From an uncultured Gammaproteobacteria bacterium (GTDB lineage: Bacteria > Cyanobacteriota > Vampirovibrionia > LMEP-6097), in contig CAZKAT010000001.1 in NCBI GenBank assembly GCA_964551135.1, forward strand, positions 148,224-212,223: DNA of 64,000 bases, written 5' to 3'. The translations under genes were made by a program, and so were the position numbers. Under the pieces are notes generated by a model. The model was not told where the DNA came from. It did no database searches and saw nothing but the letters and a program-made list of their open reading frames with translations. Positions 31,174 to 50,069 of this stretch are shown here, one piece after another. Each line of letters starts with the position of its first letter. Positions within the stretch are counted from its first letter, which is position 1.

Positions 31174-31224
31174 AGCCAGGTTTATATTATACCAGCCCTT
31201 ATTAGTAATACTGGTATAGGCTTT

Positions 31225-31998: not shown

Positions 31999-32798
31999 TA
32001 ACTTTTTAACTCACGAATAGTCTGTGGAATATTGCTAGATTTATAAATAGCAGAACCAGCAACCAGTACATTTGCTCCTTTGGCTTTAAGACTATTAGCG
32101 ATCTCCCCAGGAGTGACTCCACCATCGACTTCTATGTCAATCGTTAAGTTTTGTTTGTTTGCCATAGATTTTAACTCTTGGATTTTCTCAAGCACTACTG
32201 GTTTGAATTTTTGTCCTCCGAATCCTGGATTCACAGACATCAGTAGAACCAAATCAATATCTTTAAGAAGCTCTTCCAGAGCGGATGCTGGAGTAGCTGG
32301 ATTAATTGAGAGTCCAACCTTAATGCTTTGATCTTTAATTAGTTTAATAGTTTTCTTAATGCTTGCGATATTGTAGTGTTTAGAGCTAGTACCTCTAGCT
32401 TCCCAAGCTTCTTGAGTCTCTTGACCCCACCAGTGATCCTCTTGAGGCAGTTCATGAGTAAGTTTTTTAGAATCCTTATCATCAAGCCTGTATGCTTCCA
32501 TATGAAAAGTAATTAGATCTGCTCCAGCTTTGATAAAGTCAGGTATATGTCTTTCTGGATGAAAGATCATCAGATGCACATCTATAAAAAGATTAGTGAT
32601 AGGTTTGATTGCCTGTACTACAGGTGCTCCTATAGTGATATTCGGTACAAAGCCCCCGTCCATTACATCTACATGTAACCAATCTGCTCCAGCCTCTTCT
32701 ACCTTCTTGATCTCAGCAGCTAAGTTCGCAAAGTCAGCAGAAAGAATTGAGGGGGCTATAAGAGTGACTGAGTGGCTGAGTGGTGAGTGGCTGAGCAT
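31998..32798 (-). CDS. rpe: Ribulose-phosphate 3-epimerase with a large internal insertion
   Basis: APSILSADF, HVDVMDG.FVPN, DVHLM, MSVNPGFGGQ, EVDGG, VAGSA. Confidence 0.93.
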   Translation of the reverse strand: MLSHSPLSHSVTLIAPSILSADFANLAAEIKKVEEAGADWLHVDVMDGGFVPNITIGAPVVQAIKPITNLFIDVHLMIFHPERHIPDFIKAGADLITFHMEAYRLDDKDSKKLTHELPQEDHWWGQETQEAWEARGTSSKHYNIASIKKTIKLIKDQSIKVGLSINPATPASALEELLKDIDLVLLMSVNPGFGGQKFKPVVLEKIQELKSMANKQNLTIDIEVDGGVTPGEIANSLKAKGANVLVAGSAIYKSSNIPQTIRELKS

Positions 32799-32851
32799 AA
32801 ATCAATTATATCTGAGTTATTTACTCTCAGTCACCCAGACACTTAGTCACT
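32763..32851. repeat. Octamer-arm palindromic element, copy 1
   Basis: AGTGACTG AGTGGCTG AGTGGTG AGTGGCTG, AT-rich spacer, CAGTCACC CAGACACT TAGTCACT. Confidence 0.75.
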
Positions 32852-32859
32852 AATACACT

Positions 32860-33333
32860 TTATTTAAAGTGAGCATATGCCTTATTCGCATCTGCCATCT
32901 TGTGAGTAGCTTCTTTAGTTTCTACAGCTTTACCTTTGCTGTTATAAGCGTCTAGTAATTCGTTACTTAGTTTGATAGGGAAGCTCTTACCAGCGCGTTT
33001 GCGAGCTGCTCCGATAATCCATCTGTGAGCAAGTGCTTCACTTGTTCTTGGTTCAACTTCTACAGGTACTTGGTAAGTTGCACCGCCGATACGACGTGCT
33101 TTAACTTTAACTACAGGCATAGCGTTCTTCACTGCTTGTCTGAAAACATCGACAGCAGCCTTGTTCTCAATCTTGCCTTCTAACATTTCTACAGTTTCGT
33201 AGAATAATCTTTCTGCAGTAGATTTCTTACCAGCCACCATCATTCTATTAATGAATGAACCTACGTGTCTGTCATTGAACTTCGCATCTGGCTTAGCTAC
33301 TCTTCTTTTAAATCTTCCGTCTTTTCTTGGCAT
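32860..33333 (-). CDS. rpsG: 30S ribosomal protein S7
   Basis: GKKSTAE, RRIGGATYQVP, THKMADANKAYAH. Confidence 0.96.
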   Translation of the reverse strand: MPRKDGRFKRRVAKPDAKFNDRHVGSFINRMMVAGKKSTAERLFYETVEMLEGKIENKAAVDVFRQAVKNAMPVVKVKARRIGGATYQVPVEVEPRTSEALAHRWIIGAARKRAGKSFPIKLSNELLDAYNSKGKAVETKEATHKMADANKAYAHFK

Positions 33334-33368
33334 CTTATTTCTCTTAAACTCCTAGTTATTTAATATAG

Positions 33369-33749
33369 TTACTTTTTCTTTTTCTCTACTTTAGTTCCGT
33401 ACTTAGATCTACTTTGTTTACGTCCGTTAACTCCCTGAGTATCTAATGCACCACGAACTATGTGGTAACGAACTCCTGGTAAATCTTTTACACGGCCGCC
33501 TCTGATAAGTACTACCGAGTGTTCCTGTAAATTGTGTCCTTCGCCACCGATATAAGCTGTAACTTCTTCGCCGTTAGTCAGACGAACCCTAGCAATCTTA
33601 CGCATCGCCGAATTAGGCTTCTTAGGTGTGGCCGTTCTTACCTTAGTACAGACTCCACGCTTAAGTGGATTACCTTCTAAAGCCGGGCTCTTGCTCTTTT
33701 TCTTAGAGCTTTTGCGACGTTTGCGAATTAACTGTTGTATTGTAGGCAT
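33369..33749 (-). CDS. rpsL: 30S ribosomal protein S12
   Basis: [33 protein letters not shown]. Confidence 0.97.
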
Positions 33750-33870
33750 GCGGCTGACTATTTTAGCATTAGCGCTTAATGATATTAGCTATACCATTAA
33801 CATATTTAACTTTTATCTAATAAATATATGGATCGTAGCTAGACCCCGTATCTACGCTAGAATATAGATT

Positions 33871-34443
33871 ATGAAGAAAAGCCTCTTCTTAACCTTAATA
33901 CTGTTAGTGGCTTGCCTAGGAATGGCTAAGGCAAGCGAATTAGATGCTCTTAGATATATGCTTAATGCTAGAGAACAAGAGCCTAGAATGTATTTACCTG
34001 ATGTGGCAATGTTAGGAAGTGATATTAATGTTCTAGTGATTGCGCCAGGAGCTAAGAAGGTAGTTTTGTATGGTTCTAATCAAGAAGGTGAGACAGAGGT
34101 CAATGGTGAAAAGTTACGTCTAGGAAAGGATTTAAGGGTTTTAGGAGAGACTGATATCTCAGCTGCTAAACAAGAATCAAGAGCTAATTTTAAGATTCCA
34201 CTTGATAAGGTTAAGGATTTAGAGCTAGCTAATAAAAGTTATGCCTTTGAGGCTTTAATTAGCTATGAGAATCCTCAGACAGGAGAAGAAATTACTCGCA
34301 GAGCAAGTTTCTTTGGAGCTAATGCAAGTTTTTCTAATAATAATGCAGTGAGAATTCTGCCGCTACCTAAAGACCATGCTAACACTGCCAATATGGCAAG
34401 ATCAATGATCCCGGGACTGGGTCCAAATCCAGTAAACTATTAA
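33871..34443 (+). CDS. Hypothetical exported protein
   Basis: Signal peptide; TAGAAT-N7-ATG upstream. Confidence 0.6.
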   Translation: MKKSLFLTLILLVACLGMAKASELDALRYMLNAREQEPRMYLPDVAMLGSDINVLVIAPGAKKVVLYGSNQEGETEVNGEKLRLGKDLRVLGETDISAAKQESRANFKIPLDKVKDLELANKSYAFEALISYENPQTGEEITRRASFFGANASFSNNNAVRILPLPKDHANTANMARSMIPGLGPNPVNY

Positions 34444-34446
34444 GAG

Positions 34447-35676
34447 ATGGACTATTACTCCAATACTAATATCGAAGAGTTCGACCGTTTTGTCGAATTT
34501 TTAGGTTTTGGCTATTCTGACTCCATTAGTGTCGCTCGTAATGTTTATATCAGGCTCGAAGATTATTTATTTCCTTCTAAAGGAGATGACCAGAATAAGA
34601 TTGATTTCTCTAATCATGATTTAAGTACTCAAGAATTAAATATTAGATTCAATAGATTGCTTGCAGAGTTTGCAGGCTATGAGACTAAACATATGGGGGC
34701 TAAACAATTTCGCTATTTATCTATAGATCTAGTAGATGTTAAGTCCAGTGTTGATGAGGAATTGTTCAAGTGGTCATATTTTAACCATAAGTTTGCAGCT
34801 TCTCAAGGACAAGATGCGGCAGCTATGAATGAATGGCATAGGCTTGAAGAGAAAATTAATGTTAATAAGATTGCTGACTTCAAGGCGAGAAGAGAAACTA
34901 ACCTAGCTTTCTTTATGCATATAATTAATAATCATCAATTCTTTGATCAGATTATTTTTGCAGGTTTACCCAATGAAATAAAACATGAAGTGCAGTTTGG
35001 ATTGGACGTGGCAGAAGAGCAATATCTCGGTAAATCAATTAAAGAAAATCAAGCTCAGGGTATTTGTAGAGTAGTTGGGAACGGACTTTCAGAGGTAGTG
35101 CTCAATCTAGTGAAAAAATTTGCCATGAAGTCTAAGCTGAAGCTTAAAGGACATATACTTGCCAATTCTCGCAAACTTAATACTTATCTACTTATGGATA
35201 TTAGATCTGCTTTTTCTTACTTGGGAATTCTTGAGACTAGTATTAAGGATTGTGATTTTGTTTTCCTTATCAATGATTTGGATTTACTGAGTATTATTCC
35301 AGAGGTGAGCACTGAGAAACCAATCTTTACTGTTGATCTTAGTCAACCATCTACGCCAAATTATTCTTATATGCTACTTCGTGATGATGGTTTCTCGCAG
35401 ATCTATGCTTATGCTAAAAAACGCCAATATGAAGAGCCTATCAGTACCATGATTCGCTCCCTCTGTGCTGGCTTAGTGTTTTTTATTACTAAATCCAAAT
35501 TCTCTCAGCAACTGGCTATGAATTATATGGATGATTATTTCTTACCATTGACTGCTTCCTTAGGAAAAGATATTGGAGATTTTCAAGCAGCAATAGATTT
35601 ACTGACAGAGAAACTGGAAGAGCCTCAGCCTAAAATAAACACTAAGAAAGAAGAGATCATAGAAACTGAGGAATAA
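34447..35676 (+). CDS. Hypothetical protein, possibly a degenerate DUF4127-like protein
   Basis: Motif order GLSEVVL, CDFVFLIN, KPIFTVDL, YAY, YMDDY recalls DUF4127 as I remember it; not verified. Confidence 0.45.
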   Translation: MDYYSNTNIEEFDRFVEFLGFGYSDSISVARNVYIRLEDYLFPSKGDDQNKIDFSNHDLSTQELNIRFNRLLAEFAGYETKHMGAKQFRYLSIDLVDVKSSVDEELFKWSYFNHKFAASQGQDAAAMNEWHRLEEKINVNKIADFKARRETNLAFFMHIINNHQFFDQIIFAGLPNEIKHEVQFGLDVAEEQYLGKSIKENQAQGICRVVGNGLSEVVLNLVKKFAMKSKLKLKGHILANSRKLNTYLLMDIRSAFSYLGILETSIKDCDFVFLINDLDLLSIIPEVSTEKPIFTVDLSQPSTPNYSYMLLRDDGFSQIYAYAKKRQYEEPISTMIRSLCAGLVFFITKSKFSQQLAMNYMDDYFLPLTASLGKDIGDFQAAIDLLTEKLEEPQPKINTKKEEIIETEE

Positions 35677-35685
35677 ATTATAAAC

Positions 35686-37530
35686 ATGTTAAATGAGAAG
35701 ATAGAACAACTCGTAATAGAATCACTCGTAAAGAATTTTGATTCTGCTAAGCTTGGCGAGTTAAGTTCAGTGCCTGATTCGATTGCTATCGAATTACCTA
35801 AGAATCCAACGCATGGTGATAGAGCTATTAGTATTGCTCTGAAACTTACTAAAGATGCCAAGCTTCCTCCGCGTGCTATTGCTGAAGCTATAGTCTCTGA
35901 GCTAGATACAAAGAAATTTTCTAAGGTTGATATTGCTGGACCTGGTTTTATTAACCTAACCCTTGATTGGAGCTTGCTTGAAGATGCTATCACTGAAATT
36001 CATAATCTAGGTAAGGCATTTGGACGAATTCCTTATGAAGCTAGACCCGATAAAACTTATTCAAGTGTGCTGCTAGAGTATGTTTCAGCTAACCCTACTG
36101 GTGACCTGCATTTGGGGCATGGAAGACAAGCCGTTTTAGGTAGTGCACTGGCGGAATTGTTGAGATGGGCAGGTTATAAAGTAAGTACTGAGTTTTATAT
36201 CAACGATGCTGGTGCTCAGATAGAAAAGCTCTCTAATTCTGCTAAACAAGCAATCTTAATCCAAGAAGAATTACTTGCTGAAGCTAGTTATGATAATGAA
36301 AATAATTATCCTTTAGATTCTATGAAGGAATTTATTGATCCTAATACTTTTATTGCTGAGTTAATTGCTTACGCCAAGACCCATGAAGTTACTGGCATTG
36401 TTGGTAAGGAGATTAACTTAGAAAAGATTCCTGTGGAAGTTTATGGCAGAATTGCCGAGACTATATTCTTACGTGCACAGAAAGCCATATTAAAGCAAGC
36501 TAGGACAGAGTTTGATAAATGGTATTCAGAAAGAGAGAATCTACATCAGCCTGACTCTACAGGCAAGACTAAAGTTGATAAGATCTGTGAAACTCTCTTA
36601 GCCTCAGGATATGCTTATGAAGAAGAGGATGCACTATGGTTTAAGGCTAAAGACTTCGGTGACGAGCGTAATAGAGTTCTGCGTAAATCAGATGGTAAGT
36701 ATACTTATTTAGCAGCGGACTTGGCTTATCATCAGGATAAGCTTGCAAGAGGTAACGATAAACTTATTAATTTATGGGGTGCTGATCACCATGGACAAAT
36801 CCCTGGTATTAAAGGTGCTTTAGAAGCTCTTGGCGAGCGCGCTGACAAGCTCGATGTGGTATTGATTCAAATGGTCTCGCTTGCTAAGGGTGGTATTGAA
36901 GTGAAGATGTCTAAGCGTGATGGTAACGTTGTCACGGTAAGAGAGTTGATTGATGAAGTTGGGGTGGATGCTTTTAGATATTTCTTAGTAGAGAGCCAAG
37001 CTAATAATAGAATGGTATTTGATCTAGAGCTCGCTACTAAACAAGATAAGGATAATCCCGTTTATTACGCTCAGTATGCACATGCACGTTGTTGTAGTAT
37101 TCTCAGAACCTTAACAGGTAAGCAAATCGATCAAACTTCGATTAATACTGATATTAAGGAGACTAAGCCTCTAATTAGTGAAGCTGAATTAGAACAATGG
37201 CTTAATGAGTTTAAGCTTAGTAATGGTTTGTTTGGTAGAACTTTCTTGAAGCTTGAAGCTGAATCATTAAGTTCTACTAAAGCTCTAATCTTGGGTCTTA
37301 CTGATTTCCCGGAAGAGATTAAAGCCGCCGCCGCCGCTAATGCTCCATATAAAATTGCTAACTATATTAAGCAGATTGCTGCCCTATTCCATCAGTTTTA
37401 TACGCATAACAGAGTGATTAATGATGATAGAGAATTAATGAAAGCAAGAGTGTCTCTTGTAGCAGCAACGCAAAAGACACTCTATAACGCGCTCTCTGTA
37501 CTGGGCATCTCAGCTCCGGAGAAAATGTAA
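35686..37530 (+). CDS. argS: Arginine-tRNA ligase
   Basis: IAGPGFIN, EYVSANPTG.LHLGH, GADH, KMSKR, YAQYAHAR, SAPEKM. Confidence 0.96.
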   Translation: MLNEKIEQLVIESLVKNFDSAKLGELSSVPDSIAIELPKNPTHGDRAISIALKLTKDAKLPPRAIAEAIVSELDTKKFSKVDIAGPGFINLTLDWSLLEDAITEIHNLGKAFGRIPYEARPDKTYSSVLLEYVSANPTGDLHLGHGRQAVLGSALAELLRWAGYKVSTEFYINDAGAQIEKLSNSAKQAILIQEELLAEASYDNENNYPLDSMKEFIDPNTFIAELIAYAKTHEVTGIVGKEINLEKIPVEVYGRIAETIFLRAQKAILKQARTEFDKWYSERENLHQPDSTGKTKVDKICETLLASGYAYEEEDALWFKAKDFGDERNRVLRKSDGKYTYLAADLAYHQDKLARGNDKLINLWGADHHGQIPGIKGALEALGERADKLDVVLIQMVSLAKGGIEVKMSKRDGNVVTVRELIDEVGVDAFRYFLVESQANNRMVFDLELATKQDKDNPVYYAQYAHARCCSILRTLTGKQIDQTSINTDIKETKPLISEAELEQWLNEFKLSNGLFGRTFLKLEAESLSSTKALILGLTDFPEEIKAAAAANAPYKIANYIKQIAALFHQFYTHNRVINDDRELMKARVSLVAATQKTLYNALSVLGISAPEKM

Positions 37531-38439
37531 TTATTTTCTAGCAACTAGGGTCGGGAAAATTTTATTAGCATCATAAATAATATTTATATTTTTGAAGCCA
37601 ACTTTAGTTAGTAGTTCCTTTGTAAAACTTTCAGTTTTAAATGATTGCCATCGTACTTCTAGAATATTAAATACTAAAGCTTGTTGCATTAAATCTTCAG
37701 CTTTCATATTAGAAATCATCCATGGTGAATTAATGTCCATAATGGGTGGTGGAGTCACGAAACTAGCTAGTAACATGCCACCAGGTTTAATAGAACGATA
37801 AAAACTCTCGTATAATTTTTCTAACATATTATCGTTATGAACATAAATATTCAAGCCATTAGTTATTAAGATATCTAGCTCGTTATTCCATGGAAGCTGC
37901 CAGGCATCATAGTTATAGAAACTACAATGTTTCTCTACATTTAAGTTTTTAGCTAAAGCTTCAGCTTGGACCAAAGAATCTTGATCTAAATCCACTCCCA
38001 TTAATTTTAGGTCTGTAAATTTATTGAGATCGAGCCGGAGGACATCATCCATTAAGCCGCAAGGAATAGAAGCTAGTTTCATTCCATCTTTTAGACTGTC
38101 ACTAAGAATTTGTTGGAAAATTTTAAATCGTTGCTGGGTTGCAAGCAGTGCAGGACATGCTTCTAATAACCACTTCTCTAATGAGTTTGCTGTTTTAACT
38201 TGTGACTCGGGATGCCTAACTACATAACTAGTCCAATAACCATTAAGTCCCTTATTACAAATTAAAAACTTACCTAAATCAAATTCTTGCAGTGCTGCTA
38301 ATAAGTTTAGTAATTTACTTTTATGTTCTTCATCTGCATCCAATGCTTGTATGTTAGTTTTAATTCTATTAACTTCGCTTGTTAGATTTACTTCTTCAGC
38401 TGCATGTGAAATCAATCCGGGACTATTTTCAGTTTTCAT
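37531..38439 (-). CDS. Class I SAM-dependent methyltransferase; start probably ATG 38439
   Basis: SIPCGLMDD, GVDLD, DAWQL, KPGG; TATAAT-N6-ATG. Confidence 0.8.
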   Translation of the reverse strand: MKTENSPGLISHAAEEVNLTSEVNRIKTNIQALDADEEHKSKLLNLLAALQEFDLGKFLICNKGLNGYWTSYVVRHPESQVKTANSLEKWLLEACPALLATQQRFKIFQQILSDSLKDGMKLASIPCGLMDDVLRLDLNKFTDLKLMGVDLDQDSLVQAEALAKNLNVEKHCSFYNYDAWQLPWNNELDILITNGLNIYVHNDNMLEKLYESFYRSIKPGGMLLASFVTPPPIMDINSPWMISNMKAEDLMQQALVFNILEVRWQSFKTESFTKELLTKVGFKNINIIYDANKIFPTLVARK

Positions 38440-38519
38440 AATCATATTATAGAATAATTGAAAGCTCACAGTTGTGAGTCTGGGGTAATGTCCTGCCTGT
38501 AAGCTTTCAAAACACAGGG

Positions 38520-39044
38520 CTAGACTAAATAGTGTGTGCCGTTGGCATATATCAATTCTCTTTCTTCTGCCTCAAATCTAGTGATCTCGTAGTCGTGTCG
38601 GAATTGTCGTAGATCAACTATATTATCCTGTGGTCGGTGAGGCTCGTCTATGTCTAGCCCTGGAAAATCTTCTTCTTCATCTTCATTATCATCGTCCCAA
38701 TCTTCGATAAGCTCGATATCATTCCAAGTATTGAGCTTCGGTTGCTCTCTTAATCTTAAGAATGCTTGATAGCCATCCAGCATATCTCGTCCAAAAATTA
38801 CTAATCTTCTTTCAGTTAATCTCTCGTCGGTTATAGAAGCAACTAAATCTCTAATTTTACGAATAAATCCTTCAATGGTTCTAATAGAAAACCCTAGCTC
38901 ATCCCCAATCTCTATATTGCTCCAGCCCTCACCAATGAGAGCTAATATTGGTATATAGGGTTCGGGTATTATTGTTCCCTTATATCTCACTACTGGTAGA
39001 ATTGCTACTTTCTCTAAATCTAGTCTCTGTGCTGTTTTCGGCAT
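38520..39044 (-). CDS. Solo LuxR-type HTH protein with an acidic tail
   Basis: ILALIGEGWSNIEIGDELGFSIRTIEGFIRKI; DDDNEDEEED; GGAGG SD. Confidence 0.7.
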   Translation of the reverse strand: MPKTAQRLDLEKVAILPVVRYKGTIIPEPYIPILALIGEGWSNIEIGDELGFSIRTIEGFIRKIRDLVASITDERLTERRLVIFGRDMLDGYQAFLRLREQPKLNTWNDIELIEDWDDDNEDEEEDFPGLDIDEPHRPQDNIVDLRQFRHDYEITRFEAEERELIYANGTHYLV

Positions 39045-39093
39045 TATTAATTCCTCCGTTCTTGTGCCATTAATAATAAATCTAAAGTTCCCG

Positions 39094-39228
39094 AAATGAA
39101 AGGGGTCAAAAAACCCCTGGAACTTTTTGTTTCTAATCCAATTGTTATAAGGGTTTGAGTGATTTTGCTGTTAAAAACTATGTTCTGGAAAACTGTTCAA
39201 GGGGGTCAAAAAACCCCTGGAGGTTAAG
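39094..39228. repeat. Paired-GGGGTCAAAA element, copy B
   Basis: GGGGTCAAAAAACCCCTGGA at 39102-39121 and 39202-39221, an exact 100-bp period. Confidence 0.85.
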
Positions 39229-39235
39229 AAGGATT

Positions 39236-39802
39236 TTAAACAATCAGTTGATTTTGACCCCAAGCTAGCTTCTTGTTTGCGATATCACGCATCAATGTTA
39301 CTAACTTACCTGCTGGTGATTCTTTACTAATCACTAATGGTTTACTTTCATGCCCAGGTTTATTCCTATACGTTAGAGTATAATTTGGTCCCCCAGTCAG
39401 ACTATTTTTAATAGTAATAAAAAATCGTTTTTTGCCTTCATCAGTAATATCTTCATAACTAAAATGAACATCAGGATCACCTTGTTGATGCTGAACATTA
39501 TTAAAATTCAATAATTGAGCTGCTCTTTTAACTAATACTGATTCGTCTTGCCAGGCTGCTTCTCTATCTGTCAAACTTAAAGGATCCACCTCGTGGTTCA
39601 TACGTTCTAAAGGAATAACTATGTCTTTTATTTGCTCTCTTTCGAAGAGCTTGGTTAAAATAGCATCTCGTTCAGCAAGGTTTGCTTCAATGTCCTTACC
39701 TACTTTTACGACACTAGTAGCCAATGCATTACATGCATCAGGATTTGTAATTCTTAAAAAAGGGATTAATTTTGCGATATTACCAAAAGTTGTTGTCAGC
39801 AT
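39236..39802 (-). CDS. Hypothetical protein
   Basis: 188-aa ORF starting 5 nt after the duplicated def stop codon. Confidence 0.6.
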   Translation of the reverse strand: MLTTTFGNIAKLIPFLRITNPDACNALATSVVKVGKDIEANLAERDAILTKLFEREQIKDIVIPLERMNHEVDPLSLTDREAAWQDESVLVKRAAQLLNFNNVQHQQGDPDVHFSYEDITDEGKKRFFITIKNSLTGGPNYTLTYRNKPGHESKPLVISKESPAGKLVTLMRDIANKKLAWGQNQLIV

Positions 39803-39807
39803 AATTA

Positions 39808-39843
39808 TTATCCAAGCACCATCGGTGGCGGTGAATTAACCCC
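39808..39843 (-). repeat. Recoded duplicate of the def 3' end
   Basis: Encodes GVNSPPPMVLG*; 31/36 nt identical to 40621-40656, all 5 differences synonymous. Confidence 0.9.
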
Positions 39844-39863
39844 ATCAAGGATTTACCAGTGAT

Positions 39864-40565
39864 CTATGTTTGTGCATTTAAGGCAGATTCAATAGCAAGT
39901 TTAGTCAAAACCTTAGAATGTTTAATGAGTTCATTCAAAAATTCAAGGGCATTTTCTACAACCTCAATTTTCATAGGGTCAACTCGACTTATATCTGGAA
40001 AATATCTTCGGATTCTTGTAGAGTTCATGTTTAACTCTCCACTTTCAGTGACAGCTAATTTAGAATGGACTTCAGTTTTGAGAAAATGGTTAAATTTCTC
40101 TAGTGAAAAGTCCCTATAATTTAAAAACTTGGCTAATAAATTTTTTAATCCTTGGATTTTTAAACCAGTTATTTCTGCAAGGTTATTTAAAGCTTTTATA
40201 GTAGGATTGTCTTCATTAATTCTAGTAATTGTAAAACAGAATCCAATTGGTTTAGATTCTGTGATCGTAATTCCTTTTCCTTTTAAAAAATGAGCAAGCC
40301 CATCTAATGCTTGTGAATAATCAGAAGAAGATGAAAGACGACGGGTTTTGGGTGAATGTGCTGCATGTAAATCTTCTTTCATAGCAGGAATTCTACTTTC
40401 AATAGTTGCATCAATTACAGGAGCAACTTTTAAAAGCAGATCAAAAGCAACTCGTTGTATATCATGTTCAGCTCTATTAGGTGAGCTAATTAAAGCATCT
40501 CGTTTCTGTTGCAATGCTTGTACGATTGTTGTCATTATAGAAGTCCTTTTAGGCTTATAAGCCAT
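39864..40565 (-). CDS. Hypothetical protein between the two def 3' ends
   Basis: 233-aa AT-rich ORF; no motif recognised. Confidence 0.6.
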   Translation of the reverse strand: MAYKPKRTSIMTTIVQALQQKRDALISSPNRAEHDIQRVAFDLLLKVAPVIDATIESRIPAMKEDLHAAHSPKTRRLSSSSDYSQALDGLAHFLKGKGITITESKPIGFCFTITRINEDNPTIKALNNLAEITGLKIQGLKNLLAKFLNYRDFSLEKFNHFLKTEVHSKLAVTESGELNMNSTRIRRYFPDISRVDPMKIEVVENALEFLNELIKHSKVLTKLAIESALNAQT

Positions 40566-40620
40566 TTGAATTTGATTTGTGAATAAATTATATAATATTA
40601 TTGTACTTAGAACACAAGAT

Positions 40621-41223
40621 TTAGCCTAGCACCATTGGTGGTGGTGAATTAACTCCGCCTAAACCATGCTTAGAAAGTTCTTCTCTGGCTATGCCTTTAT
40701 CTACGGCTATATCTATAAATAATTTACCGTTAAGATGATCTATTTCATGTTGTACGCAACGACAAAAGAGATCCTCTGCTGCTTCTAGGCGATGCTCTTT
40801 ACCAGTGAGATCTTGAAACTTGAAAACTATTCTACTAGCGCGTTTCACCTTAAAGAATACATCTGGGAAACTTAGGCAACCTTCGTAACTATCCATCTCG
40901 CCTTCTTTATAAACTATGATTGGATTGACCATTATATAAGGTTCGTATTCAGGTTCAGCATCGCTCTCCTCGCGTTCTTCTTTATATCTTTCTGAAGCCC
41001 ATTCCGTGTCAATAACTATGATTCTGTGCTTGATACCCACTTGCGGTGCAGCTAGCCCCACGCCGTTTTGGTGGTACATGGTCTTAAGCATTTTATCTGC
41101 GATCTTCTCAAGCTTGCGATCAAACTTAGTAACAGTGGAACATGGCTCTCTGAGCACATTTGCGCCATATTTTTCTATGCTGAAATATTTATCTTCGTTG
41201 TCTGACATTTTATTGTGGGTCAA
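40621..41223 (-). CDS. def: Peptide deformylase
   Basis: GVGLAAPQVG, EGCLS, QHEIDHLNG. Confidence 0.96.
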   Translation of the reverse strand: MTHNKMSDNEDKYFSIEKYGANVLREPCSTVTKFDRKLEKIADKMLKTMYHQNGVGLAAPQVGIKHRIIVIDTEWASERYKEEREESDAEPEYEPYIMVNPIIVYKEGEMDSYEGCLSFPDVFFKVKRASRIVFKFQDLTGKEHRLEAAEDLFCRCVQHEIDHLNGKLFIDIAVDKGIAREELSKHGLGGVNSPPPMVLG

Positions 41224-41998
41224 TCTGATTGAATTTGAACTTATTAAGTATTATTCCACGTTTAGATGTTTTTATAAAATCAATGATCTCTTGTATCTGT
41301 GGAAGTGGTTTGAGTTCATTTTCTAGTCTAGCTATCATATTAGGTAGAGCTAGGCGGTCTCCATAAATAACCTTAAACGCTTTCATGATTTCAGACTTAA
41401 GCTCTTGGCTAAATTGAGCTTTAATCATGGCATGCCTATTAGTGGAAATAGCTCCAGATGGTATGCCTACATAGATCATGTAAGGTATCGCATCATGATT
41501 AGTTGCTGACATACCACTCAGCATGACGAAGTTACCAATACGACAATGTTGATGTATTACTGCTCCACCACCTAGGTTTACATGATTTTGAACTTGAACG
41601 TAACCACCAAGCGTTGCTCCATTTGCTAAGGTACAATGATTTCCAATAGTAGAATTATGAGCTAGATGGGAATTAACCATTAGGTAATTATGATTACCAA
41701 CCTTAGTCGAATCACCTTCACCAGTGGCTTTATGGATAGTTACAAACTCACGAATAACATTGTTATTGCCTATTTCTACGTAGCTCATCTCGTTTTTATA
41801 AGATCTGTCTTGAGGAGCTTCGCCTATAACTGCATGAGAATGAATAACGTTATTATTACCAATACGGGTTCCATTACGAATAATACTGTAATCAGAGATA
41901 ATATTGTTATCCCCAATAATAACGTCATCTTCAATAATAGCTGTAGGAGCTATTATCACGTTTGAACCTATAGTTGCTCGCTTGGATAATAAAGCCAT
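41210..41998 (-). CDS. lpxA: UDP-GlcNAc O-acyltransferase
   Basis: Hexapeptide repeats, PQDRSY, IREFVTIH, HLAHN, VHQ-like IHQHCRIG. Confidence 0.9.
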   Translation of the reverse strand: MALLSKRATIGSNVIIAPTAIIEDDVIIGDNNIISDYSIIRNGTRIGNNNVIHSHAVIGEAPQDRSYKNEMSYVEIGNNNVIREFVTIHKATGEGDSTKVGNHNYLMVNSHLAHNSTIGNHCTLANGATLGGYVQVQNHVNLGGGAVIHQHCRIGNFVMLSGMSATNHDAIPYMIYVGIPSGAISTNRHAMIKAQFSQELKSEIMKAFKVIYGDRLALPNMIARLENELKPLPQIQEIIDFIKTSKRGIILNKFKFNQIDPQ

Positions 41999-42095
41999 TA
42001 TGTAAATATAGCATAAAAGAGGTTAAGGACAAATTATAGCCTTGTAAATAGAAGGTTTTCCCTTATTGGCTCGTATTAGTTATTAAGTAGCTACA

Positions 42096-42677
42096 ATGAA
42101 TCTTACAATGTCTATAAATTTATTAGCACTTAACGACGAAGAGCTAATGCTAGAGCTTCAAAGTGGCAACGAAGAGGCGTTTGTAATATTGGTTAAAAAA
42201 TACACTAATAAATTTTATGCTTTGGCCTATCGTATGGTTGGTCAAGCTGAAGCTGAAGATTTAGTTCAAGAAGCATTCTTAAAACTTCTCGATCAACCTC
42301 ACAAATGGAATCGAAACAAAGGCGCTAAATTCTCTACTTGGTTTTATACAGTGATTATTAATATGTGCAAGGATTACAACAAGAAGAAAAAACCTATACA
42401 AATCTCTGATGACTTTGAGAAAGCTAGTGATGCAAATTTGGAAGAATTGATTGAGCAAAAAGATCAGCGAAGATACGTTGATAAATGTCTCTTAGAATTA
42501 TCTGAAAATCAACGCATCTCTGTATATCTCTGTTTTTACCAGGGTTTGAGCAATCAAGAAGCTGCTGATATTATGGGATTAAAGCTCAAAGCGTTGCAGT
42601 CACTCTTAATGAGAGCTAAGGTTGCTTTGAAAGAGAAAGCAAGAATTTATAATAGTGTAGTGGAGGCGGTAAGATGA
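42096..42677 (+). CDS. ECF sigma factor
   Basis: DEELM..., AEDLVQEAF, FSTWFY, LS..EAA.IMG. Confidence 0.9.
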   Translation: MNLTMSINLLALNDEELMLELQSGNEEAFVILVKKYTNKFYALAYRMVGQAEAEDLVQEAFLKLLDQPHKWNRNKGAKFSTWFYTVIINMCKDYNKKKKPIQISDDFEKASDANLEELIEQKDQRRYVDKCLLELSENQRISVYLCFYQGLSNQEAADIMGLKLKALQSLLMRAKVALKEKARIYNSVVEAVR

Positions 42678-43000
42678 ATTTAGAAAGCATAAATGAAGAT
42701 CAAGAATTAAGAGAGTTCTTGGCAGCAAGCAAGGTTACAGATGCTAGTACGAACCTGGTAAACCGTATTCTTGAAATTGCAAGAAATCGCAAACAAAATA
42801 ATGCTTGGTTTGATTTTTATTCTGCAATTCAGGAATTGATTGCAGAGATAAGGATACCTAGACCAATTTATACACTTGCTTGTGTATTGATTCTTGGCTT
42901 TGTGATTGGTTTTAATAATGCGAGTGATTTAAGCACCCAGCCAACTATTGGCACAGACTTAGCAAATGACTTTTTATATGACGAAGGAGAATTAATATGA
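42674..43000 (+). CDS. Putative single-TM anti-sigma factor
   Basis: Overlaps the sigma factor stop codon; one C-proximal TM. Confidence 0.65.
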   Translation: MNLESINEDQELREFLAASKVTDASTNLVNRILEIARNRKQNNAWFDFYSAIQELIAEIRIPRPIYTLACVLILGFVIGFNNASDLSTQPTIGTDLANDFLYDEGELI

Positions 43001-43428
43001 ATAAATCAACAAAAATACTAGTCGGAGTTTCCTTAGCCATAAATGTTTTATTAATAGGAGTGATTCTCGGGTACTTGTCTAATCGCTCGCATCATGGTCG
43101 TTGGGGTGGTAAACACTCTCATCATCACTGCCATAAATCTAAGCATTGCAAACCCTTCAACGATAAATTTGTTAAACTTCATGAAAAACAGCATGGAATG
43201 TTTAAACAAGTAGAAACTAAGCGTGAGGAAGTATTTGAAGTGCTCACTGCGGAGAAATTTGATCCTATAGCTTATGAGCAAAAATCTAAAGAGTTGCACC
43301 AAGCTTATGCTCAAATTGCTGAAACTATGTCAGAGACTATTAAAGAGACAGCAGCTGGTTTATCTCAAGCTGATAGACTGGAACTTGCAAGCGAGCTCGG
43401 ACATTTTAAGCATAAGAAACATAAATAG
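42997..43428 (+). CDS. Periplasmic heavy-metal sensor-like helical protein
   Basis: SLAINVLLIG anchor, His/Cys-rich linker, FDP..Y, LSQADRL. Confidence 0.7.
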   Translation: MNKSTKILVGVSLAINVLLIGVILGYLSNRSHHGRWGGKHSHHHCHKSKHCKPFNDKFVKLHEKQHGMFKQVETKREEVFEVLTAEKFDPIAYEQKSKELHQAYAQIAETMSETIKETAAGLSQADRLELASELGHFKHKKHK

Positions 43429-43433
43429 TAAGC

Positions 43434-43826
43434 TTATTTAGCTTTTAATTCTTCCACTAGTTTGGTTAAGTCTTTAGCTGAGATTGCTCCTAGTTTTCTG
43501 CTGACATTGGATCTATTAGCACTTACGAAGACTGTTTCTGGAATTCTAGAGATCTTTAATTCTCTGACTAGGGCTTTAGTTTGAGTAGCATCTACGTCAA
43601 CTTCAAAGAAATCTACCGAACCAGATTTGGCTAACTTCACTTCATTAAATGCTGGCGCATAGTCTTTACAACTACCACACCAGGTAGCATAGAACTTGAT
43701 TACTGCTGGTTTAGAGGATTTACTGAGGAAGGTTTTAAGAGCATCGGTTGTCGTGGTAACAGAACTCACTTGCCCGCAACCTGCGAACATTAGAACAGTA
43801 AATAACACCAAGGATAGTTTGCGCAT
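43434..43826 (-). CDS. Thioredoxin-family lipoprotein
   Basis: Lipobox FAGC; WCGSC; cis-Pro IPE. Confidence 0.85.
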
Positions 43827-43866
43827 AAGATTAATTATAGCATCAGCCCTCTGTTATTATATTAGA

Positions 43867-44919
43867 GTGCCACAAATCATTCTCACTGGCGATAGACCCA
43901 CTGGTCCTTTACATTTAGGGCATTATGTCGGTTCGCTTCAAAACCGTGTAAAACTTCAAAATGAAAAAGATGCTCAAGCTAAGCAAAAGTATAAATCTTA
44001 CATTCTTATTGCAGATATGCAGGCGCTCACTGATAACTTTGAGACACCTGAAGTCGTTAGTTCTAATATTCTGAATGTTGCTCTGGATTATTTAGCAGTA
44101 GGGATAGATCCTAAACTTAGTTCTATTTTTATTCAGTCTCAGATTCCTGAGTTTTCTGAGTTGACGATGTATTTTTTAAACCTTCTCACTCTTAATCAAG
44201 TAGAACGCAATCCTACTGTGAAAGAGGAGATACGTCAGAAAGGATATGAAGGTCAGATCCCTATGGGCTTCTTGATTTATCCAGTGGCGCAAGCTGCTGA
44301 TATACTTGCTTTCAATGCAGACCTAGTGCCTGTTGGTGCCGATCAAATCCCGATGATAGAAGACACTAATATGATCGCGCGTAAATTTAATCAAGTATAT
44401 AAACGTGAGGTCTTTAAAGAAGCTAAAGCTTTAGTACCAGAAAATTTCTCTCGCTTAGTTGGTATAGATGGTAAGTCTAAAATGTCTAAGTCTCTTGGTA
44501 ATGCAATCTATCTGAAAGACACTAGTGATGAGCTTTGGCAGAAGATTCGACAGATGTATACCGATCCTAATCACCTGAAGGTAGAAGATCCGGGACAAGT
44601 AGAAGGTAATGTTTGTTTTACTTACTTAGATGCTTTCTGTGACGATGCGAAGAAAGTTCAAGAACTTAAGGATCATTATTCTCGTGGTGGACTTGGTGAT
44701 ATGGTTGTGAAGAAATACCTTATGGAAGTTTTAGATGCAAAACTTGCTCCGATTCGTGCTAGACGTGAAGAGTTTGCTAAAGATTCTGGTGCGGTAATGA
44801 AAGTACTTGCTCAAGGAACAGAAGAAGCGCGTCAAGCAGTTTATAAAGTAATGAAAGAAGTTAAAGAAGCGATGGGGATAAACTATGATCAAAGCCGTCT
44901 CACATCTAGTCCTTGCTAG
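43867..44919 (+). CDS. trpS: Tryptophan-tRNA ligase; start reassigned to GTG 43867
   Basis: [35 protein letters not shown]. Confidence 0.96.
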
Positions 44920-45343
44920 TAAAAACGTTCCAGTGATGACAAAGTTTTTTAGCAAGGTTTTTGATGCAGAATCTTGTTATGAAAACGAAGAGTTTAGTGA
45001 GTTTATCTTAGCAAGTGGATTTCGAGTAGCTTTCTTCAAACCTTTAGCTAAAAATCTAAAATATTTTAATGCAATTACTTCTCGCAAAGCTATTTCCATT
45101 GGAGTAACTGTGGATAACGTAGATGAATTCTATGAGAAACTTAAAAAGAAAACTAAATCGTTGAATATTTCTTTAGCAAGTAAGCCTAAAGATCATCCAT
45201 GGGGATTTAGGAGTTTCTTGCTTATTGATCCAGATCTAAATCGTTGGGAGATTACTCAGAGTCCAAGTAAAAGGGGCATGCTGAAAGAGGTGCCGTTAGT
45301 TAGGAAATTAAAGAAAAAGTCTAAACTAAAACCGCTTCACTAA
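44885..45343 (+). CDS. VOC/glyoxalase-family protein
   Basis: SHLVL, V.NVDEFYE, PWG.RSF.L.DPD.NRWEI. Confidence 0.85.
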
Positions 45344-46748
45344 GCTCAAAATCTACACCATCAATATTAATTGTGTCACCTTCTTGAGCGCCGCGGGATT
45401 TAAGAGCGTCGATTACTCCAAGTCCCTTAGTTACTCTGAAGAAGTAATTAAGAGATTCCAGATCTCTTAAGTCTACTAAGCGCATATGGCGCTCTAGCTT
45501 ACCGCAATGCACCATCCACTTGATTCCGTCTTCTTCGTGACCTTGTTTCTCTATAGTGAAAGCACTGTCATCATGATCAGTTGCTACCGGATCATAATCG
45601 ATACTAAGTGAGCTACCGATGTCTTTAGGAATTAGTTCTAGAGTTTGTTCTATAAATCTTTGCATTATTCTTAAACCATTCTCATAACGCTTACCCTCGC
45701 TATCAAAGCCCTCTCCACTTAAAGTAGAAATAGCAAATAATCCAATAGCATTAGATTCTGGTAATATACCATCTTCTATCTCTGAGAAGCTGTTTAATTT
45801 TAGTCCAGTATATTTTTCAAATCTAGTAACTAACTCAGTTAGTTCTTCATCTGGGAATCCTTCTATCTTGTTTAAAACTACTACTTGTTTTCTTTGAGCT
45901 AACTCTGGACTGTAGTTATAAAGTTCATAATTTACTTGAGTGAAATTCGTTAGAGGATCTTCAAAAGTTTTCAGCTTATACTGATCTAAGTTAGAGCCCA
46001 TTAAGCCCCAAACATCTACTACGTGAACCAATAGGCGAGTGCGTTCTATGTGTTTTAAGAATTCATAACCTAAACCAACACCTTCACTTGCACCTTCTAT
46101 AATTCCTGGGATATCTGCCATCACAAATGCATCACCAGTTTCTTTTTGTACTACACCGAGATTCGGTGCAATAGTAGTGAATGCATAATCTGCGATCTTA
46201 GGTTTGGCTGCACTGACTCTGGAAATAAGCGTAGATTTACCTGCATTTGGGAAACCAATAATTCCTACATCAGCAATCATCTTTAACTCTAATTCTAATT
46301 CTCGCTCTACAGGAGGTTCTCCTGGTTCTGAATAACTTGGAACACGATTCTTGTTAGACTTGAATCTCATATTGCCTCTACCGCCGCGACCACCTTGCGC
46401 AACTAAGAGTTTCTGTCCCTCTTCAACTAAGTCACCGATAGTAAGATCTCTAACAGGATCTTTTACTATGGTTCCAACAGGGACTTTGATAATTAAATCT
46501 TCACCGCTTCTACCAGTTTTATTAGTCTTAGAACCTTTGCTGCCATCATCAGCTTTAAAGAAAGCTTTGAACTGTAAATCTAATAAAGTGCTGAGGTCAT
46601 GACTAGCTTCCAGCCAAACGCTACCACCACGTCCACCGTCACCACCATCTGGTCCACCAAAAGCCACAAACTTTTCTTGACGAAAAGTATTAGCACCGCG
46701 ACCACCGCCACCGCTACTAATCTTAATCCTGGCCTTATCTATAAACAT
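45321..46748 (-). CDS. obgE: GTPase Obg with a C-terminal extension domain
   Basis: GGPDGGDGGRGG, GFPNAGKST, YAFTT, DIPGIIEGA, NKIE. Confidence 0.96.
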   Translation of the reverse strand: MFIDKARIKISSGGGGRGANTFRQEKFVAFGGPDGGDGGRGGSVWLEASHDLSTLLDLQFKAFFKADDGSKGSKTNKTGRSGEDLIIKVPVGTIVKDPVRDLTIGDLVEEGQKLLVAQGGRGGRGNMRFKSNKNRVPSYSEPGEPPVERELELELKMIADVGIIGFPNAGKSTLISRVSAAKPKIADYAFTTIAPNLGVVQKETGDAFVMADIPGIIEGASEGVGLGYEFLKHIERTRLLVHVVDVWGLMGSNLDQYKLKTFEDPLTNFTQVNYELYNYSPELAQRKQVVVLNKIEGFPDEELTELVTRFEKYTGLKLNSFSEIEDGILPESNAIGLFAISTLSGEGFDSEGKRYENGLRIMQRFIEQTLELIPKDIGSSLSIDYDPVATDHDDSAFTIEKQGHEEDGIKWMVHCGKLERHMRLVDLRDLESLNYFFRVTKGLGVIDALKSRGAQEGDTINIDGVDFELSEAVLV

Positions 46749-46780
46749 AAGCTTAAGTAAATACTAAATATAGCATACTT

Positions 46781-46875
46781 GGTGACTGAGGGGCTGGGTG
46801 ACAGGGTGGCTGAGTTAGTGAATATACCTAGTTATTTGGCTATTCAGTCACTCACTACTCAGCCACCCAGGCACT
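46781..46875. repeat. Octamer-arm palindromic element, copy 2
   Basis: GGTGACTG AGGGGCTG GGTGACAG GGTGGCTG, spacer, CAGTCACT CACTACT CAGCCACC CAGGCACT. Confidence 0.75.
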
Positions 46876-47680
46876 AAGTTGCTGTTTGCTTGATTCTCGT
46901 TAGTTCTTCTTCTAAATCTTCACCATAAATATTCAGAATACTTTCCACTTCTTGCTTATAAATTCTCCAAGCATCTTTAATATTTTTGCGATTGAGGCTG
47001 ATGATTTCCTTGCCCATATTAGCGTTGCCTTGTGCAAGCCTGGTCATAGACTTAAACCCAGGGCCTATAACTTTAGTAGCTGGAGAAAAATTACTTACCA
47101 TATCAGCTAAGCTCAGACTTAAGACTAGTGGTAGATGCGATGTCATAGCTACAGATTTATCGTGAGTTTCAGCGTCCATCACTACTAGCTCTGCCCCTAA
47201 ATCTTCACGAATAATTTTTTCTAGGTTTTCCGTTCTAGTACTAGATTCATCTAGTATCCATTTAGCACCCTCAAACAATTCTGGGAAGCTAGCTTCATAA
47301 CCTTGATGCTCGGTGCCAGCCATAGGATGACCAGCAATAAAATTCTTTAAACCTAGTTCCTGAGCTTTATTGCTGACAGCTACCTTGGTACTAGCTACAT
47401 CAGTGATAATCGTTTTAGCGAAAGCTCTTTGATCTTCAGCAATAGTACCTTCTTTACCAGATTGAATGATAATCTTAGCGATGTTTTCTAACTCACGAAT
47501 GATGTTAGATTGTGATCCGCAAAGAAACACTATATCAGCGTTAGCGAGGTCTGCTAATTTATATTCTCTGTTTTGACTTATGCTAACAGTGAGCAATTCA
47601 TGCTTACCCATTAAACGCTTCTCAATAGAGCCACCTATTAGACCAAGTCCTACTATACCTATACGTAGTTTATTTACCAT
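46874..47680 (-). CDS. tyrA: Prephenate/arogenate dehydrogenase
   Basis: GLGLIGGS, TDVASTK, GHPMAGTE, HD..VA.TSHLP. Confidence 0.9.
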   Translation of the reverse strand: MVNKLRIGIVGLGLIGGSIEKRLMGKHELLTVSISQNREYKLADLANADIVFLCGSQSNIIRELENIAKIIIQSGKEGTIAEDQRAFAKTIITDVASTKVAVSNKAQELGLKNFIAGHPMAGTEHQGYEASFPELFEGAKWILDESSTRTENLEKIIREDLGAELVVMDAETHDKSVAMTSHLPLVLSLSLADMVSNFSPATKVIGPGFKSMTRLAQGNANMGKEIISLNRKNIKDAWRIYKQEVESILNIYGEDLEEELTRIKQTAT

Positions 47681-47689
47681 GGTGCTAAT

Positions 47690-48415
47690 TTATAGATCAC
47701 CAGGAATATTAAACGAATCCCAGTCGTTGACGTAGTTACCTTCAAGGCTGATACTCTTTGCTGTGAATGGTGCACAGATACCATACTTGATACCATCTAC
47801 GAATCCTTTAATCAGACCAGTGATAGCACCTGGAACTGCACCTAAAGCAAATCCAATTGTTTTAGATACTAATTGTGCTGGAAGACTGTCACCAAGCTCC
47901 TCGCTTACTCGGTCAGACATTTGTACGCCTTTAGAGAAAGCACCTCTAAGTGTTCCATCTACAGTACTGATAGGAGTTCCTATGATAGTACCAAAAGTAC
48001 TTTTAAGTGGGTGAGCATTGCAGACACCTTTAGGCTTCTTAGTTGTAACTGTTGTAGTTTCAGTTACTGCTTCTTTAACATTGTTAATTCTCTCTGATAA
48101 TAATTGTTGATTTTCTGCTTTAAGGCTGTTAATTTCTGTTTGTAAACTGTCATTGTTGCCTGCAAGTTCTTTAAGTTTACTTACAAGGGCAGCGATTTTA
48201 TCGTCTAATTCTTTAGCTTTAGCTTCAAGTCTATATCTAGAACTTTCACATTCATCAAGTTTAATTCTGTTGGTATCAAGCTCTTGGCGTAGTTCTTCAT
48301 CTACTTCTACTAATTCTCCTGTCACCACACCGGCTTTCACCATGCTTGGCAGTAAGATTGAACTTATTAGTATTGATGTTAAAAATACTCTACTAACTTT
48401 GCTGATATTAACCAT
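47690..48415 (-). CDS. Exported coiled-coil protein with a Gly-rich hydrophobic C-terminus
   Basis: Signal peptide, heptads, GFALGAVPGAITGLIKG. Confidence 0.6.
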   Translation of the reverse strand: MVNISKVSRVFLTSILISSILLPSMVKAGVVTGELVEVDEELRQELDTNRIKLDECESSRYRLEAKAKELDDKIAALVSKLKELAGNNDSLQTEINSLKAENQQLLSERINNVKEAVTETTTVTTKKPKGVCNAHPLKSTFGTIIGTPISTVDGTLRGAFSKGVQMSDRVSEELGDSLPAQLVSKTIGFALGAVPGAITGLIKGFVDGIKYGICAPFTAKSISLEGNYVNDWDSFNIPGDL

Positions 48416-48461
48416 GAGTTTGAAAATAGCATAAAAGACTACGGTAATGCAAGAGAATTAG

Positions 48462-48496
48462 AATATGTCATACGCCCTTCGGGCGACATACATATT
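48462..48496. repeat. GCCCTTCGGGC hairpin, copy 1
   Basis: AATATGT..CGCCC-TTC-GGGCG..ACATATT. Confidence 0.6.
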
Positions 48497-49410: not shown

Positions 49411-50069
49411 TGCTTGTCAAAGATTCCGTGCAATGTGATGCAGAACACATGGTGCGTGATACAACACTCTTTCAGGAATTTGATTTAAGTTCAGAAAGCA
49501 AACCGATATTTTTTTTCTATACTTGGAATGCTCCAGCACTTACTATTGGTAAAATTCAAAGAAATAGAGAGCAGCTTATTAAAGAAGCAGAAGCTTTGGG
49601 ACTGCCTTGCTATTTGCGTCCTACGGGAGGACGTGCTGTACTTCATGGTGGTGATATTTGTTACACCTTTATTGGTGCTCAAAGTGATACAGAGTTTGGT
49701 GGTAAATTACAAGAGTCGTTTCGTAAAGTAAATGAGATGGTGATAAGTTTGGTAAATGAAATTTTTAATCTTGAAATTGAAGCATCAGCGCTCAATACAA
49801 ATGAGTTAGCTAATGCTTTGAAAATATTTAATTGTTTTTCTACTCATGTTTCTAATGAGGGTCTTTTTCATGGACATAAGATTGTTGGTGCTGCGCAAGC
49901 GATGGGCTCTAGAAGTTTTATTCAGCAAGGTTCTATTCAGCTAAATAAAGTTGATGTTGATTTGAAATATTTTCAGTCTTATAAAACCTTAGGTGAACTT
50001 ATCCAAGAAAAATATATTCTTAGTGAATTATCTAGTATTTTAAATGAAAGGCAATCTAATATTATCTAA
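49410..50069 (+). CDS. Lipoate-protein ligase family protein, LipM-like octanoyltransferase
   Basis: YTW..PALTIG, RPTGGRAVLH, CF, KIVGAAQ, QQGSI; no C-terminal LplA domain. Confidence 0.8.
   Translation: MLVKDSVQCDAEHMVRDTTLFQEFDLSSESKPIFFFYTWNAPALTIGKIQRNREQLIKEAEALGLPCYLRPTGGRAVLHGGDICYTFIGAQSDTEFGGKLQESFRKVNEMVISLVNEIFNLEIEASALNTNELANALKIFNCFSTHVSNEGLFHGHKIVGAAQAMGSRSFIQQGSIQLNKVDVDLKYFQSYKTLGELIQEKYILSELSSILNERQSNII

Follow-up and report, generated by a model that had tools for sequence, protein, structure and literature searches.

The locus downstream of def

This analysis concerns the 3′ end of def, the gene for peptide deformylase, in a stretch of 64,000 nucleotides (nt) from an uncultured bacterium (assembly GCA_964551135.1, contig CAZKAT010000001.1, positions 148,224 to 212,223). 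The whole stretch is called the window and its first letter is position 1. The organism is AT-rich (36.7% GC), Melainabacteria-like, and comes from a freshwater metagenome. The end of def is present twice, and between the two copies, which we call tail1 and tail2, lies an open reading frame (ORF) of its own, ORF233; another one, ORF188, follows tail2. All of these are on the minus strand, and left and right are used as read along that strand. The features are:

40621-41208, minus strand: def, peptide deformylase of 195 amino acids (aa), ATG at 41208, Pfam Pep_deformylase E=4e-49, also 195 aa in the gene calls; its allele is of the type assigned to a donor below
40621-40656, minus strand: tail1, the functional last 11 codons and stop codon of def, with 4 synonymous differences from the tail of the empty-site strain described below
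39864-40565, minus strand: ORF233, probably an acquired gene, product predicted to be mostly helical (AlphaFold2 model, pLDDT 75), GC content at third codon positions 0.18
39844-39863, minus strand: spacer of 20 nt after ORF233, containing TAAATCCTT at 39855-39847, with the putative illegitimate junction at its 3′ edge (~39844)
39808-39843, minus strand: tail2, untranslated, probably the displaced old def end of the recipient, 35/36 identical to the def tail of contig L164
39236-39802, minus strand: ORF188, an older lineage-specific ORFan, directly 3′ of def in the empty-site strain and identical in L164

Tail1 (40656-40621) reads GGA GTT AAT TCA CCA CCA CCA ATG GTG CTA GGC TAA and tail2 (39843-39808) reads GGG GTT AAT TCA CCG CCA CCG ATG GTG CTT GGA TAA. 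Their starts are 813 nt apart, 31 of the 36 nt are identical, and both code for GVNSPPPMVLG*. The five differences are all synonymous, that is 5 on 9.5 synonymous sites and 0 on 23.5 non-synonymous sites by the method of Nei and Gojobori. The chance that five random substitutions are all synonymous was found by simulation to be ~0.0012, and a comparable repeat did not appear in 100 shuffles of the window. The similarity begins at the first Gly codon, give or take a few bases, and its other end coincides precisely with the stop codon. Tail2 is not translated: in the frame of def it is preceded by a TAA four codons upstream, and it is out of frame with ORF233. From its end there are 5 nt to the ATG of ORF188 (39802). 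Across the window 79 stop-to-stop frames reach 100 aa or more; among these def alone has its C-terminal peptide repeated, and no other recoded 3′-end duplicate was seen. Tail1 holds a CACCA-N7-TGGTG dyad because the codons for SPPPMV force it.

The duplication in the assemblies

A 1925-nt contig from the Logan assemblies corresponds to window positions 39201-41125 with 100% identity and spans both tails. It is found in five runs of the sample, was made by a different assembler, and has the same depth as the neighbouring contigs. In addition, a 281-kb contig from ENA is identical to the window over 33732-49044. The longest identical run common to the two tails is 11 nt, and the tails therefore cannot collapse in a graph with k=31. 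The structure is thus not an assembly artefact. The preliminary description of this DNA had allowed for a chimera, and one made of two co-occurring strains might be thought of since the sample also contains a second, related species, whose depth is about half as great. This species is, however, 16-18% divergent and has neither ORF233 nor ORF188, and the def allele of the drinking-water strain described below (X5 type) is absent from the window's sample. With the junction-spanning contig recurring at the depth of its flanks, and the ENA contig besides, a chimera has next to no probability.

The empty site and the divergent tract

The comparison strain belongs to the same species, is near-identical to the window, and comes from drinking-water metagenomes of another study (runs X5-X8). 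Its contig L164 from X5 (8626 nt, depth 33) has position 39829 joined to 40643 with exactly 813 nt skipped, and def is followed by 5 nt and then ORF188. The same joint, with 813 nt skipped, is present in a 577-nt contig from X7. An empty-site allele, which the preliminary description had proposed to look for, does exist, and it lacks precisely the unit in question. Along the window the comparison with this strain gives:

1-20000: 0, 16 and 2 differences on three contigs
28533-39228: 99.74% identity
39199-39844: 1 difference
39830-40642: the 813 nt absent from the empty-site allele, a single 813-nt gap in the MAFFT alignment, with a placement that is ambiguous within the 11-12 nt common to both tails
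40621-46110: ~590 differences (~10%) in 5.49 kb; this homeologous tract contains the 3′ part of obgE, genes for a glyoxalase, TrpS (trpS), a thioredoxin, a 143-aa protein, an anti-sigma factor and an extracytoplasmic function (ECF) sigma factor, lpxA and def
46111-48654: 0 differences
48627-64000: 0-26 differences per contig

Outside 40621-46110 the empty-site strain is thus 99.7-100% identical to the window wherever it was examined, and the right border of the tract is exactly ORF233 with the duplicated tail. Compared with the empty-site strain every gene in the tract has a dS (synonymous divergence) of 0.23-0.81 and a ratio of non-synonymous to synonymous divergence (dN/dS) of 0.01-0.15, and the tract genes are therefore functional orthologues from another lineage. 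For def itself there are 47 synonymous and 3 non-synonymous differences, which gives a dS of ~0.64.

The alleles of the two tails

The def tail of the X5 strain is GGA GTT AAT TCA CCG CCA CCG ATG GTG CTT GGA TAA. Against this sequence tail2 shows a single difference in 36 positions, in the third base of its first codon (GGG against GGA), and from 39840 down to 39199 the window and L164 are 100% identical. Tail1 differs from the X5 tail at 4 of 36 positions, all of them synonymous, and these differences carry the divergence of the tract on up to the stop codon of def. Tail2 is therefore the X5-type def end and tail1 the divergent, donor-type def end. The divergence of the tail pair (5 on 9.5 synonymous sites) equals that of the whole of def (47 on 109), and judged from these alignments the five synonymous differences are the divergence of two orthologous functional def alleles.

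These results bear out a good deal of the preliminary description. The duplicate of the def 3′ end, with 31 of 36 nt identical and five synonymous differences, is in the DNA as it was described. The proposal that both copies come from functional def alleles of different lineages agrees with the 35/36 identity of tail2 to the def tail of a near-identical strain without ORF233, and aligning the def 3′ ends, as had been proposed, assigned tail2 to the X5 type and tail1 to the type of the divergent tract. The data likewise support its view that ORF233 came with incoming DNA which pushed the old end aside to a position 5 nt before ORF188; the empty-site strain has def, 5 nt and ORF188 in this order.

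A probable scar of one-sided recombination

Our preferred explanation, to which we assign a probability of about 0.65, is that a single recombination left the duplicated def tail behind as its scar, the partners being two ~10% divergent lineages of a Melainabacteria-like genus. The recipient would have been X5-like, with def, 5 nt, ORF188, a hairpin and a LuxR-type gene. The donor would be an unsampled relative, ~10% divergent, with ORF233 in the slot between def and the hairpin, and in this donor ORF233 would be followed by a TAAATCCTTCTTAACC-hairpin spacer with no second def tail. A donor fragment of ~6.3 kb, from the 3′ part of obgE through def and ORF233, would have replaced the homologous genes of the recipient. 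The left crossover would be homologous and lie inside obgE near 46110. At the right end the homology of the donor DNA would have been exhausted a few bases past ORF233, and the join would have been made illegitimately 33-36 nt before the stop codon of the recipient's def, perhaps by the microhomology TGG/GTT. The complete def of the donor would now serve the cell, such that the essential gene is intact, and the last 11 def codons of the recipient would persist untranslated in front of ORF188. They are probably still the ribosome-binding and translation-initiation region of ORF188, and the retention of this region may be the reason why this particular junction survived. The duplication, the empty site, the divergent tract with its exact borders and the allelic assignment of both tails are observed; that the window's strain is the recombinant and that its right junction is illegitimate is inferred.

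Several points weigh against this explanation. The donor lineage was not found by a k-mer search of the runs with ORF233 and the tract, nor in exact and 90% protein clusters with def, the sigma factor, the anti-sigma factor and the 143-aa gene; ORF233 and the tract alleles of the window occur in the window's own sample only. The microhomology is putative, the donor sequence past the junction being unsampled, and the 6 nt at the left of tail2, GATGGG as against GGTGGA in the recipient, agree neither with an unaltered recipient sequence nor with the spacer expected from the donor. Which way the event went is deduced solely by parsimony, and the sister species in the window's sample gives no polarity as it is equidistant from both tract alleles (84.0% against 82.6% over lpxA-def). 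It should also be noted that our comparisons were made on assembled contigs, in which rare excised or empty forms within the sample may be missed, and that the search for a recombinase covered the 64-kb window of the genome. That search gave no match to an integrase or transposase above chance, either with the ORFs scanned across the window or with the gene calls from 28.5 to 49 kb, and this counts in favour of the explanation.

ORF233 and its junctions

Among 5.8 billion clustered proteins ORF233 finds only itself. It has two distant homologues with 38-42% identity and a conserved NPTIKALNxLA motif, and from this conservation we conclude that it belongs to a small, real, unnamed protein family. 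The homologue for which the context was fetched (38% identity; L162 3972-4601, L163 2435-3064) is chromosomal in another uncultured bacterium, where it lies divergent beside rpsF-ssb and not near def. The repeat at that locus, 19 nt with 79% identity, is what chance gives. The structure model of ORF233 has no fold match in the PDB or among viral structures, and its sequence has no match in Pfam, PADLOC, phages or plasmids and only chance-level ones in PHROG (E ~0.06-0.09). ORF233 is absent from L164, from X7, from L167 (the sister species) and from all other samples. ORF233 and ORF188 are unrelated to each other, and no RNA runs with the region were found.

The 20 nt from the stop codon of ORF233 to tail2 are ATCACTGG TAAATCCTT GAT. 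This spacer has the 8-mer AAATCCTT in common with the spacer before the hairpin after ORF188 (TAAAATCCTTCTTAACC), a match with P ~0.006 by shuffling, and it has TAAATCC in common with the spacer that follows def in the sister species (ATAAATCCCTTTCTTAACC). Since TAAATCCTT is the start of the pre-hairpin spacer in relatives, ORF233 appears to come from a chromosomal def-ORF233-hairpin context. Comparing the spacers, the most likely source is thus a chromosome carrying the donor's def (def_D), ORF233, spacer and hairpin in this order, and not a free element carrying an attP site. The junction would be within ~6 nt of 39844, where TGG and GTT are in common with the recipient. Scans of the junction for promoters, terminators and folding gave nothing informative.

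An imperfect direct repeat, TAAATC(C)TTG, flanks ORF233 at 40613-40623 and 39844-39855 on the minus strand. The left copy begins at the stop codon of def (TAAATCTTGTG), and the right copy, immediately ahead of tail2, is what remains of the spacer (TAAATCCTTGAT). The repeat could be due to chance, be a target duplication, or be a trace of the first entry of ORF233 into its slot in the donor lineage.

Alternative explanations

The event could have gone in the opposite direction. The layout of the window would then be the older one, and the drinking-water strain would have imported the 5.5-kb def tract by a crossover in the tail2 relic (33-36 nt) which deleted ORF233, whereas the duplication itself would go back to some previous event that was not observed. 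Either of the two genomes could, from the data, be the one with the imported tract, with no help from the sister species, and the lone GGA/GGG difference, at the tail's left edge, fits a crossover just inside tail2. This scheme, however, needs two events instead of one, and squeezes a homologous crossover into at most 33 nt of diverged homology though the whole of def was on offer. It leaves the origin of the duplication and the presence of an intact, synonymously diverged relic unexplained, and turns the equal divergence of tail pair and tract into a coincidence; the TAAATCCTT remnant beside tail2 would still indicate an illegitimate join of a chromosomal fragment. We consider the reversal unlikely, but to be kept in mind. 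Another proposal, that the end of def was duplicated locally in tandem in one lineage and then drifted, accounts for direct repeats 813 nt apart. Against it, an untranslated copy should gather random changes and yet five of five are synonymous (P ~0.001), tail2 is at 35 of 36 positions the functional tail of another strain, and ORF233 has no counterpart in the empty-site strain. We give this proposal practically no credence.

The preliminary description saw the signature of an integration of an 813-bp unit into the def 3′ end and offered, as one of two options, a cassette served by a recombinase in trans. ORF233 would then be the cargo of a small site-specific unit resembling a cis-mobilizable element (CIME), with the two tails as attL and attR. 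Imperfect direct repeats of 36 nt (31/36) do bracket a single gene and restore the target gene, the empty site lacks exactly the unit, tail1 contains the dyad, and integration into 3′ ends as well as CIMEs without an integrase are known (PMC7563491). Against this, the dyad is dictated by the codons, and the insertion runs without a break into 5.5 kb of divergent housekeeping DNA whose end falls exactly there, which an insertion of this kind does not predict. The repeat goes precisely as far as the stop codon, and between the tails there are differences of the sort found in orthologous alleles. Neither an integrase, a transposase nor an attC-like structure was found in the 64-kb window, the unit is in no other sample, phage or plasmid, a degenerate def-tail pattern has no match in genome contigs or viral contigs, and the ORF233 homologue beside rpsF-ssb has only its chance-like repeat. 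It had also been considered that relatives might all carry both copies, but the second tail is missing in L001, L002, L003, L082, L084 and L110. A site-specific unit is in our opinion improbable. The alternative offered in the preliminary description, homology-facilitated capture during natural transformation, fares better: capture fits best with the one-sided divergent tract, but the DNA may have entered the cell by transformation, transduction or conjugation, and the comEA-like gene that had been listed in the window could not be confirmed, a motif search for a ComEA-type helix-hairpin-helix having found none.

The locus does not have the marks of an integron gene cassette either; the region 39800-39870 folds no better than its shuffles (z = +0.29) and the window holds no integrase.

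Relation to known systems

The pattern at def and ORF233 matches that of homology-facilitated illegitimate recombination (HFIR; PMC6382021), and by analogy the event resembles HFIR, or an exchange of an islet which turned additive. As in HFIR, ORF233 would have entered with a homologous anchor on one side only and with the other end joined illegitimately at a very short, here putative, similarity, and the gain is additive with a precise empty-site counterpart. The foreign segment is contiguous with donor-type homologous DNA on one side, as ORF233 abuts the 5.49-kb tract, and it has no homologue in the recipient type, as ORF233 is not in L164, X7 or L167. In HFIR the illegitimate junction is made at a microhomology of 3-10 bp, for which TGG and GTT would be the candidates here, and DNA taken up by transformation is integrated in a RecA-dependent way. 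Unlike HFIR in the laboratory, the footprint at def arose in nature, in an uncultured bacterium of Melainabacteria-like type. Furthermore, the anchor is 5.5 kb of ~10% divergent, homeologous DNA, and a recoded copy of a gene end stays behind at the junction.

It is a general pattern in population genomics that flexible genomic islets are replaced when flanking core genes recombine homologously. The slot between def and the hairpin and LuxR-type gene has different orphan genes in sibling lineages, apparently exchanged together with flanking core DNA, which is in line with this pattern. In a normal swap, however, both crossovers are homologous and the gene in residence is replaced. At def the crossover on the right would lie outside the homologous flank, and the incoming ORF233 would therefore have been stacked in front of the resident ORF188.

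The prophages e14 and 21 sit in icd of E. coli. Integrative and conjugative elements (ICEs), integrative and mobilizable elements (IMEs) as well as CIMEs are integrated in the 3′ ends of the protein-coding genes fda, rpsI and rpmG in streptococci, and the CIMEs without an integrase span 1.2-13 kb (PMC7563491). The likeness to def is that the direct repeats are the 3′ end of a housekeeping gene, that the incoming copy completes the gene and displaces the old end, and that the differences between the repeats are largely silent; the def repeats of 36 nt (31/36) include the 3′ end of the target as such elements would have it. Their repeats are, however, att sites that an integrase has produced, and when a filled site is compared with an empty one the two flanks show the same degree of relatedness. 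At def there is no integrase in the window and the flanks are unequal, the right one being 99.7-100% identical and the left one ~10% divergent for 5.5 kb. The unit is also unique: neither ORF233 nor the tail pattern was found a second time in genome, viral, phage and plasmid collections or in the other samples.

With a one-sided recombination as the explanation, the def duplicate is a well-documented natural example, from a lineage that has been little studied, of a known route of gene gain and not a new mobile cassette system. Natural footprints of the HFIR type are seldom caught complete. Here the filled site, a near-identical empty site from a separate study, the tract with both of its borders and the allelic origin of each repeat are all at hand. 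The case would illustrate how an orphan gene is added, and not swapped, at the boundary of a core gene in an uncultured lineage with a small genome. It also suggests that recoded 3′-end duplicates, which are usually taken as att sites, can arise without a site-specific recombinase, and this is a caution for genome scans which call mobile elements from such duplicates.

The variable slot after def

Further to the right the window contains:

39199-39221, minus strand: hairpin box 1 (TCCAGGGGTTTTTTGACCCCC), which is conserved and bounds the slot on the right, 10-19 nt past the def stop in L167
39099-39121, minus strand: hairpin box 2, 100 nt further on and upstream of the LuxR-type gene, with a related box at roughly the same spacing in L167
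38520-39044, minus strand: LuxR-type helix-turn-helix (HTH) gene with a weak GerE match, a conserved neighbour 3′ of def in relatives, with homologues downstream of def in L001, L002, L084 and L167

The sister species (L167/L168), which lives in the window's own sample and has 82-84% nucleotide identity to the window, has the def end GTG CTT GGG TAG ATAAATCCCTTTCTTAACC, after which come the hairpin TCCAGGGGTTTTTTGACCCCC, another hairpin related to it and the LuxR-type gene. In the low-depth X7 strain a tail2-like def end is linked to the hairpin by 2 nt. ORF188 is absent from both, and the hairpin follows def there. In the distant relatives L001, L002 and L084, whose def is 70-78% identical, the LuxR-type HTH gene comes next after def and argS after that, and ORF233, ORF188 and the second tail are all missing. 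The content between the def stop codon and the hairpin differs in this way among relatives, and the stretch is therefore a variable slot.

ORF188 finds only itself in the protein database. Searches with it in Pfam, PADLOC and PHROG gave nothing useful, and its structure model is unusable (pLDDT 42). It is set in nearly as a bare ORF, starting 5 nt past the def stop and with its own stop codon overlapping the TAAAATCC spacer, the same spacer that lies directly 3′ of def in the sister species, and it brings along neither a promoter nor flanking DNA.

Both ORF188 and ORF233 have the stop codon of def on one side and the same TAAATCC spacer on the other. It might be imagined that in this Melainabacteria-like clade the conserved def tail and the conserved hairpin delimit a dedicated single-gene slot in which lineage-specific orphan genes are repeatedly swapped or stacked, a view which we find improbable. 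Should displaced def tails provide portable homology, or be targeted by an unlinked recombinase, this would make a cassette-like system on a protein-coding 3′ end.

Other observations

Both hairpin boxes (39099-39121 and 39199-39221) are kept in the sister species (L167 about 8600-8760) at roughly equal spacing, the second box being slightly different. In metagenome contigs the depth at the boxes is 4-8 times that of their surroundings, and it is here that many contigs are interrupted or fork. Several copies of the motif therefore seem to exist in the genome or in the community.

A second variable slot is found between the LuxR-type gene and argS. In the window it is occupied by a gene for a 312-aa protein resembling S-adenosylmethionine (SAM) methyltransferases (37531-38469, minus strand), with a partial PADLOC match to mad2 (E=1e-9). 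This gene is present in the X5 strain and absent from L167 and L002, and L084 has an unrelated 245-aa gene in the same slot.

Two clusters of differences stand out against the otherwise identical X5 strain, one of 7 differences in 100 nt (14017-14116) and one of 12 differences in 40 nt (14777-14816), the latter on a contig with a higher depth. They may be short recombination patches or a repeat.

Bro-N domains are common in phages and mobile elements. At 5613-6461 on the plus strand, among cell-envelope genes, the window encodes a 282-aa protein with such a domain (E=2e-9).

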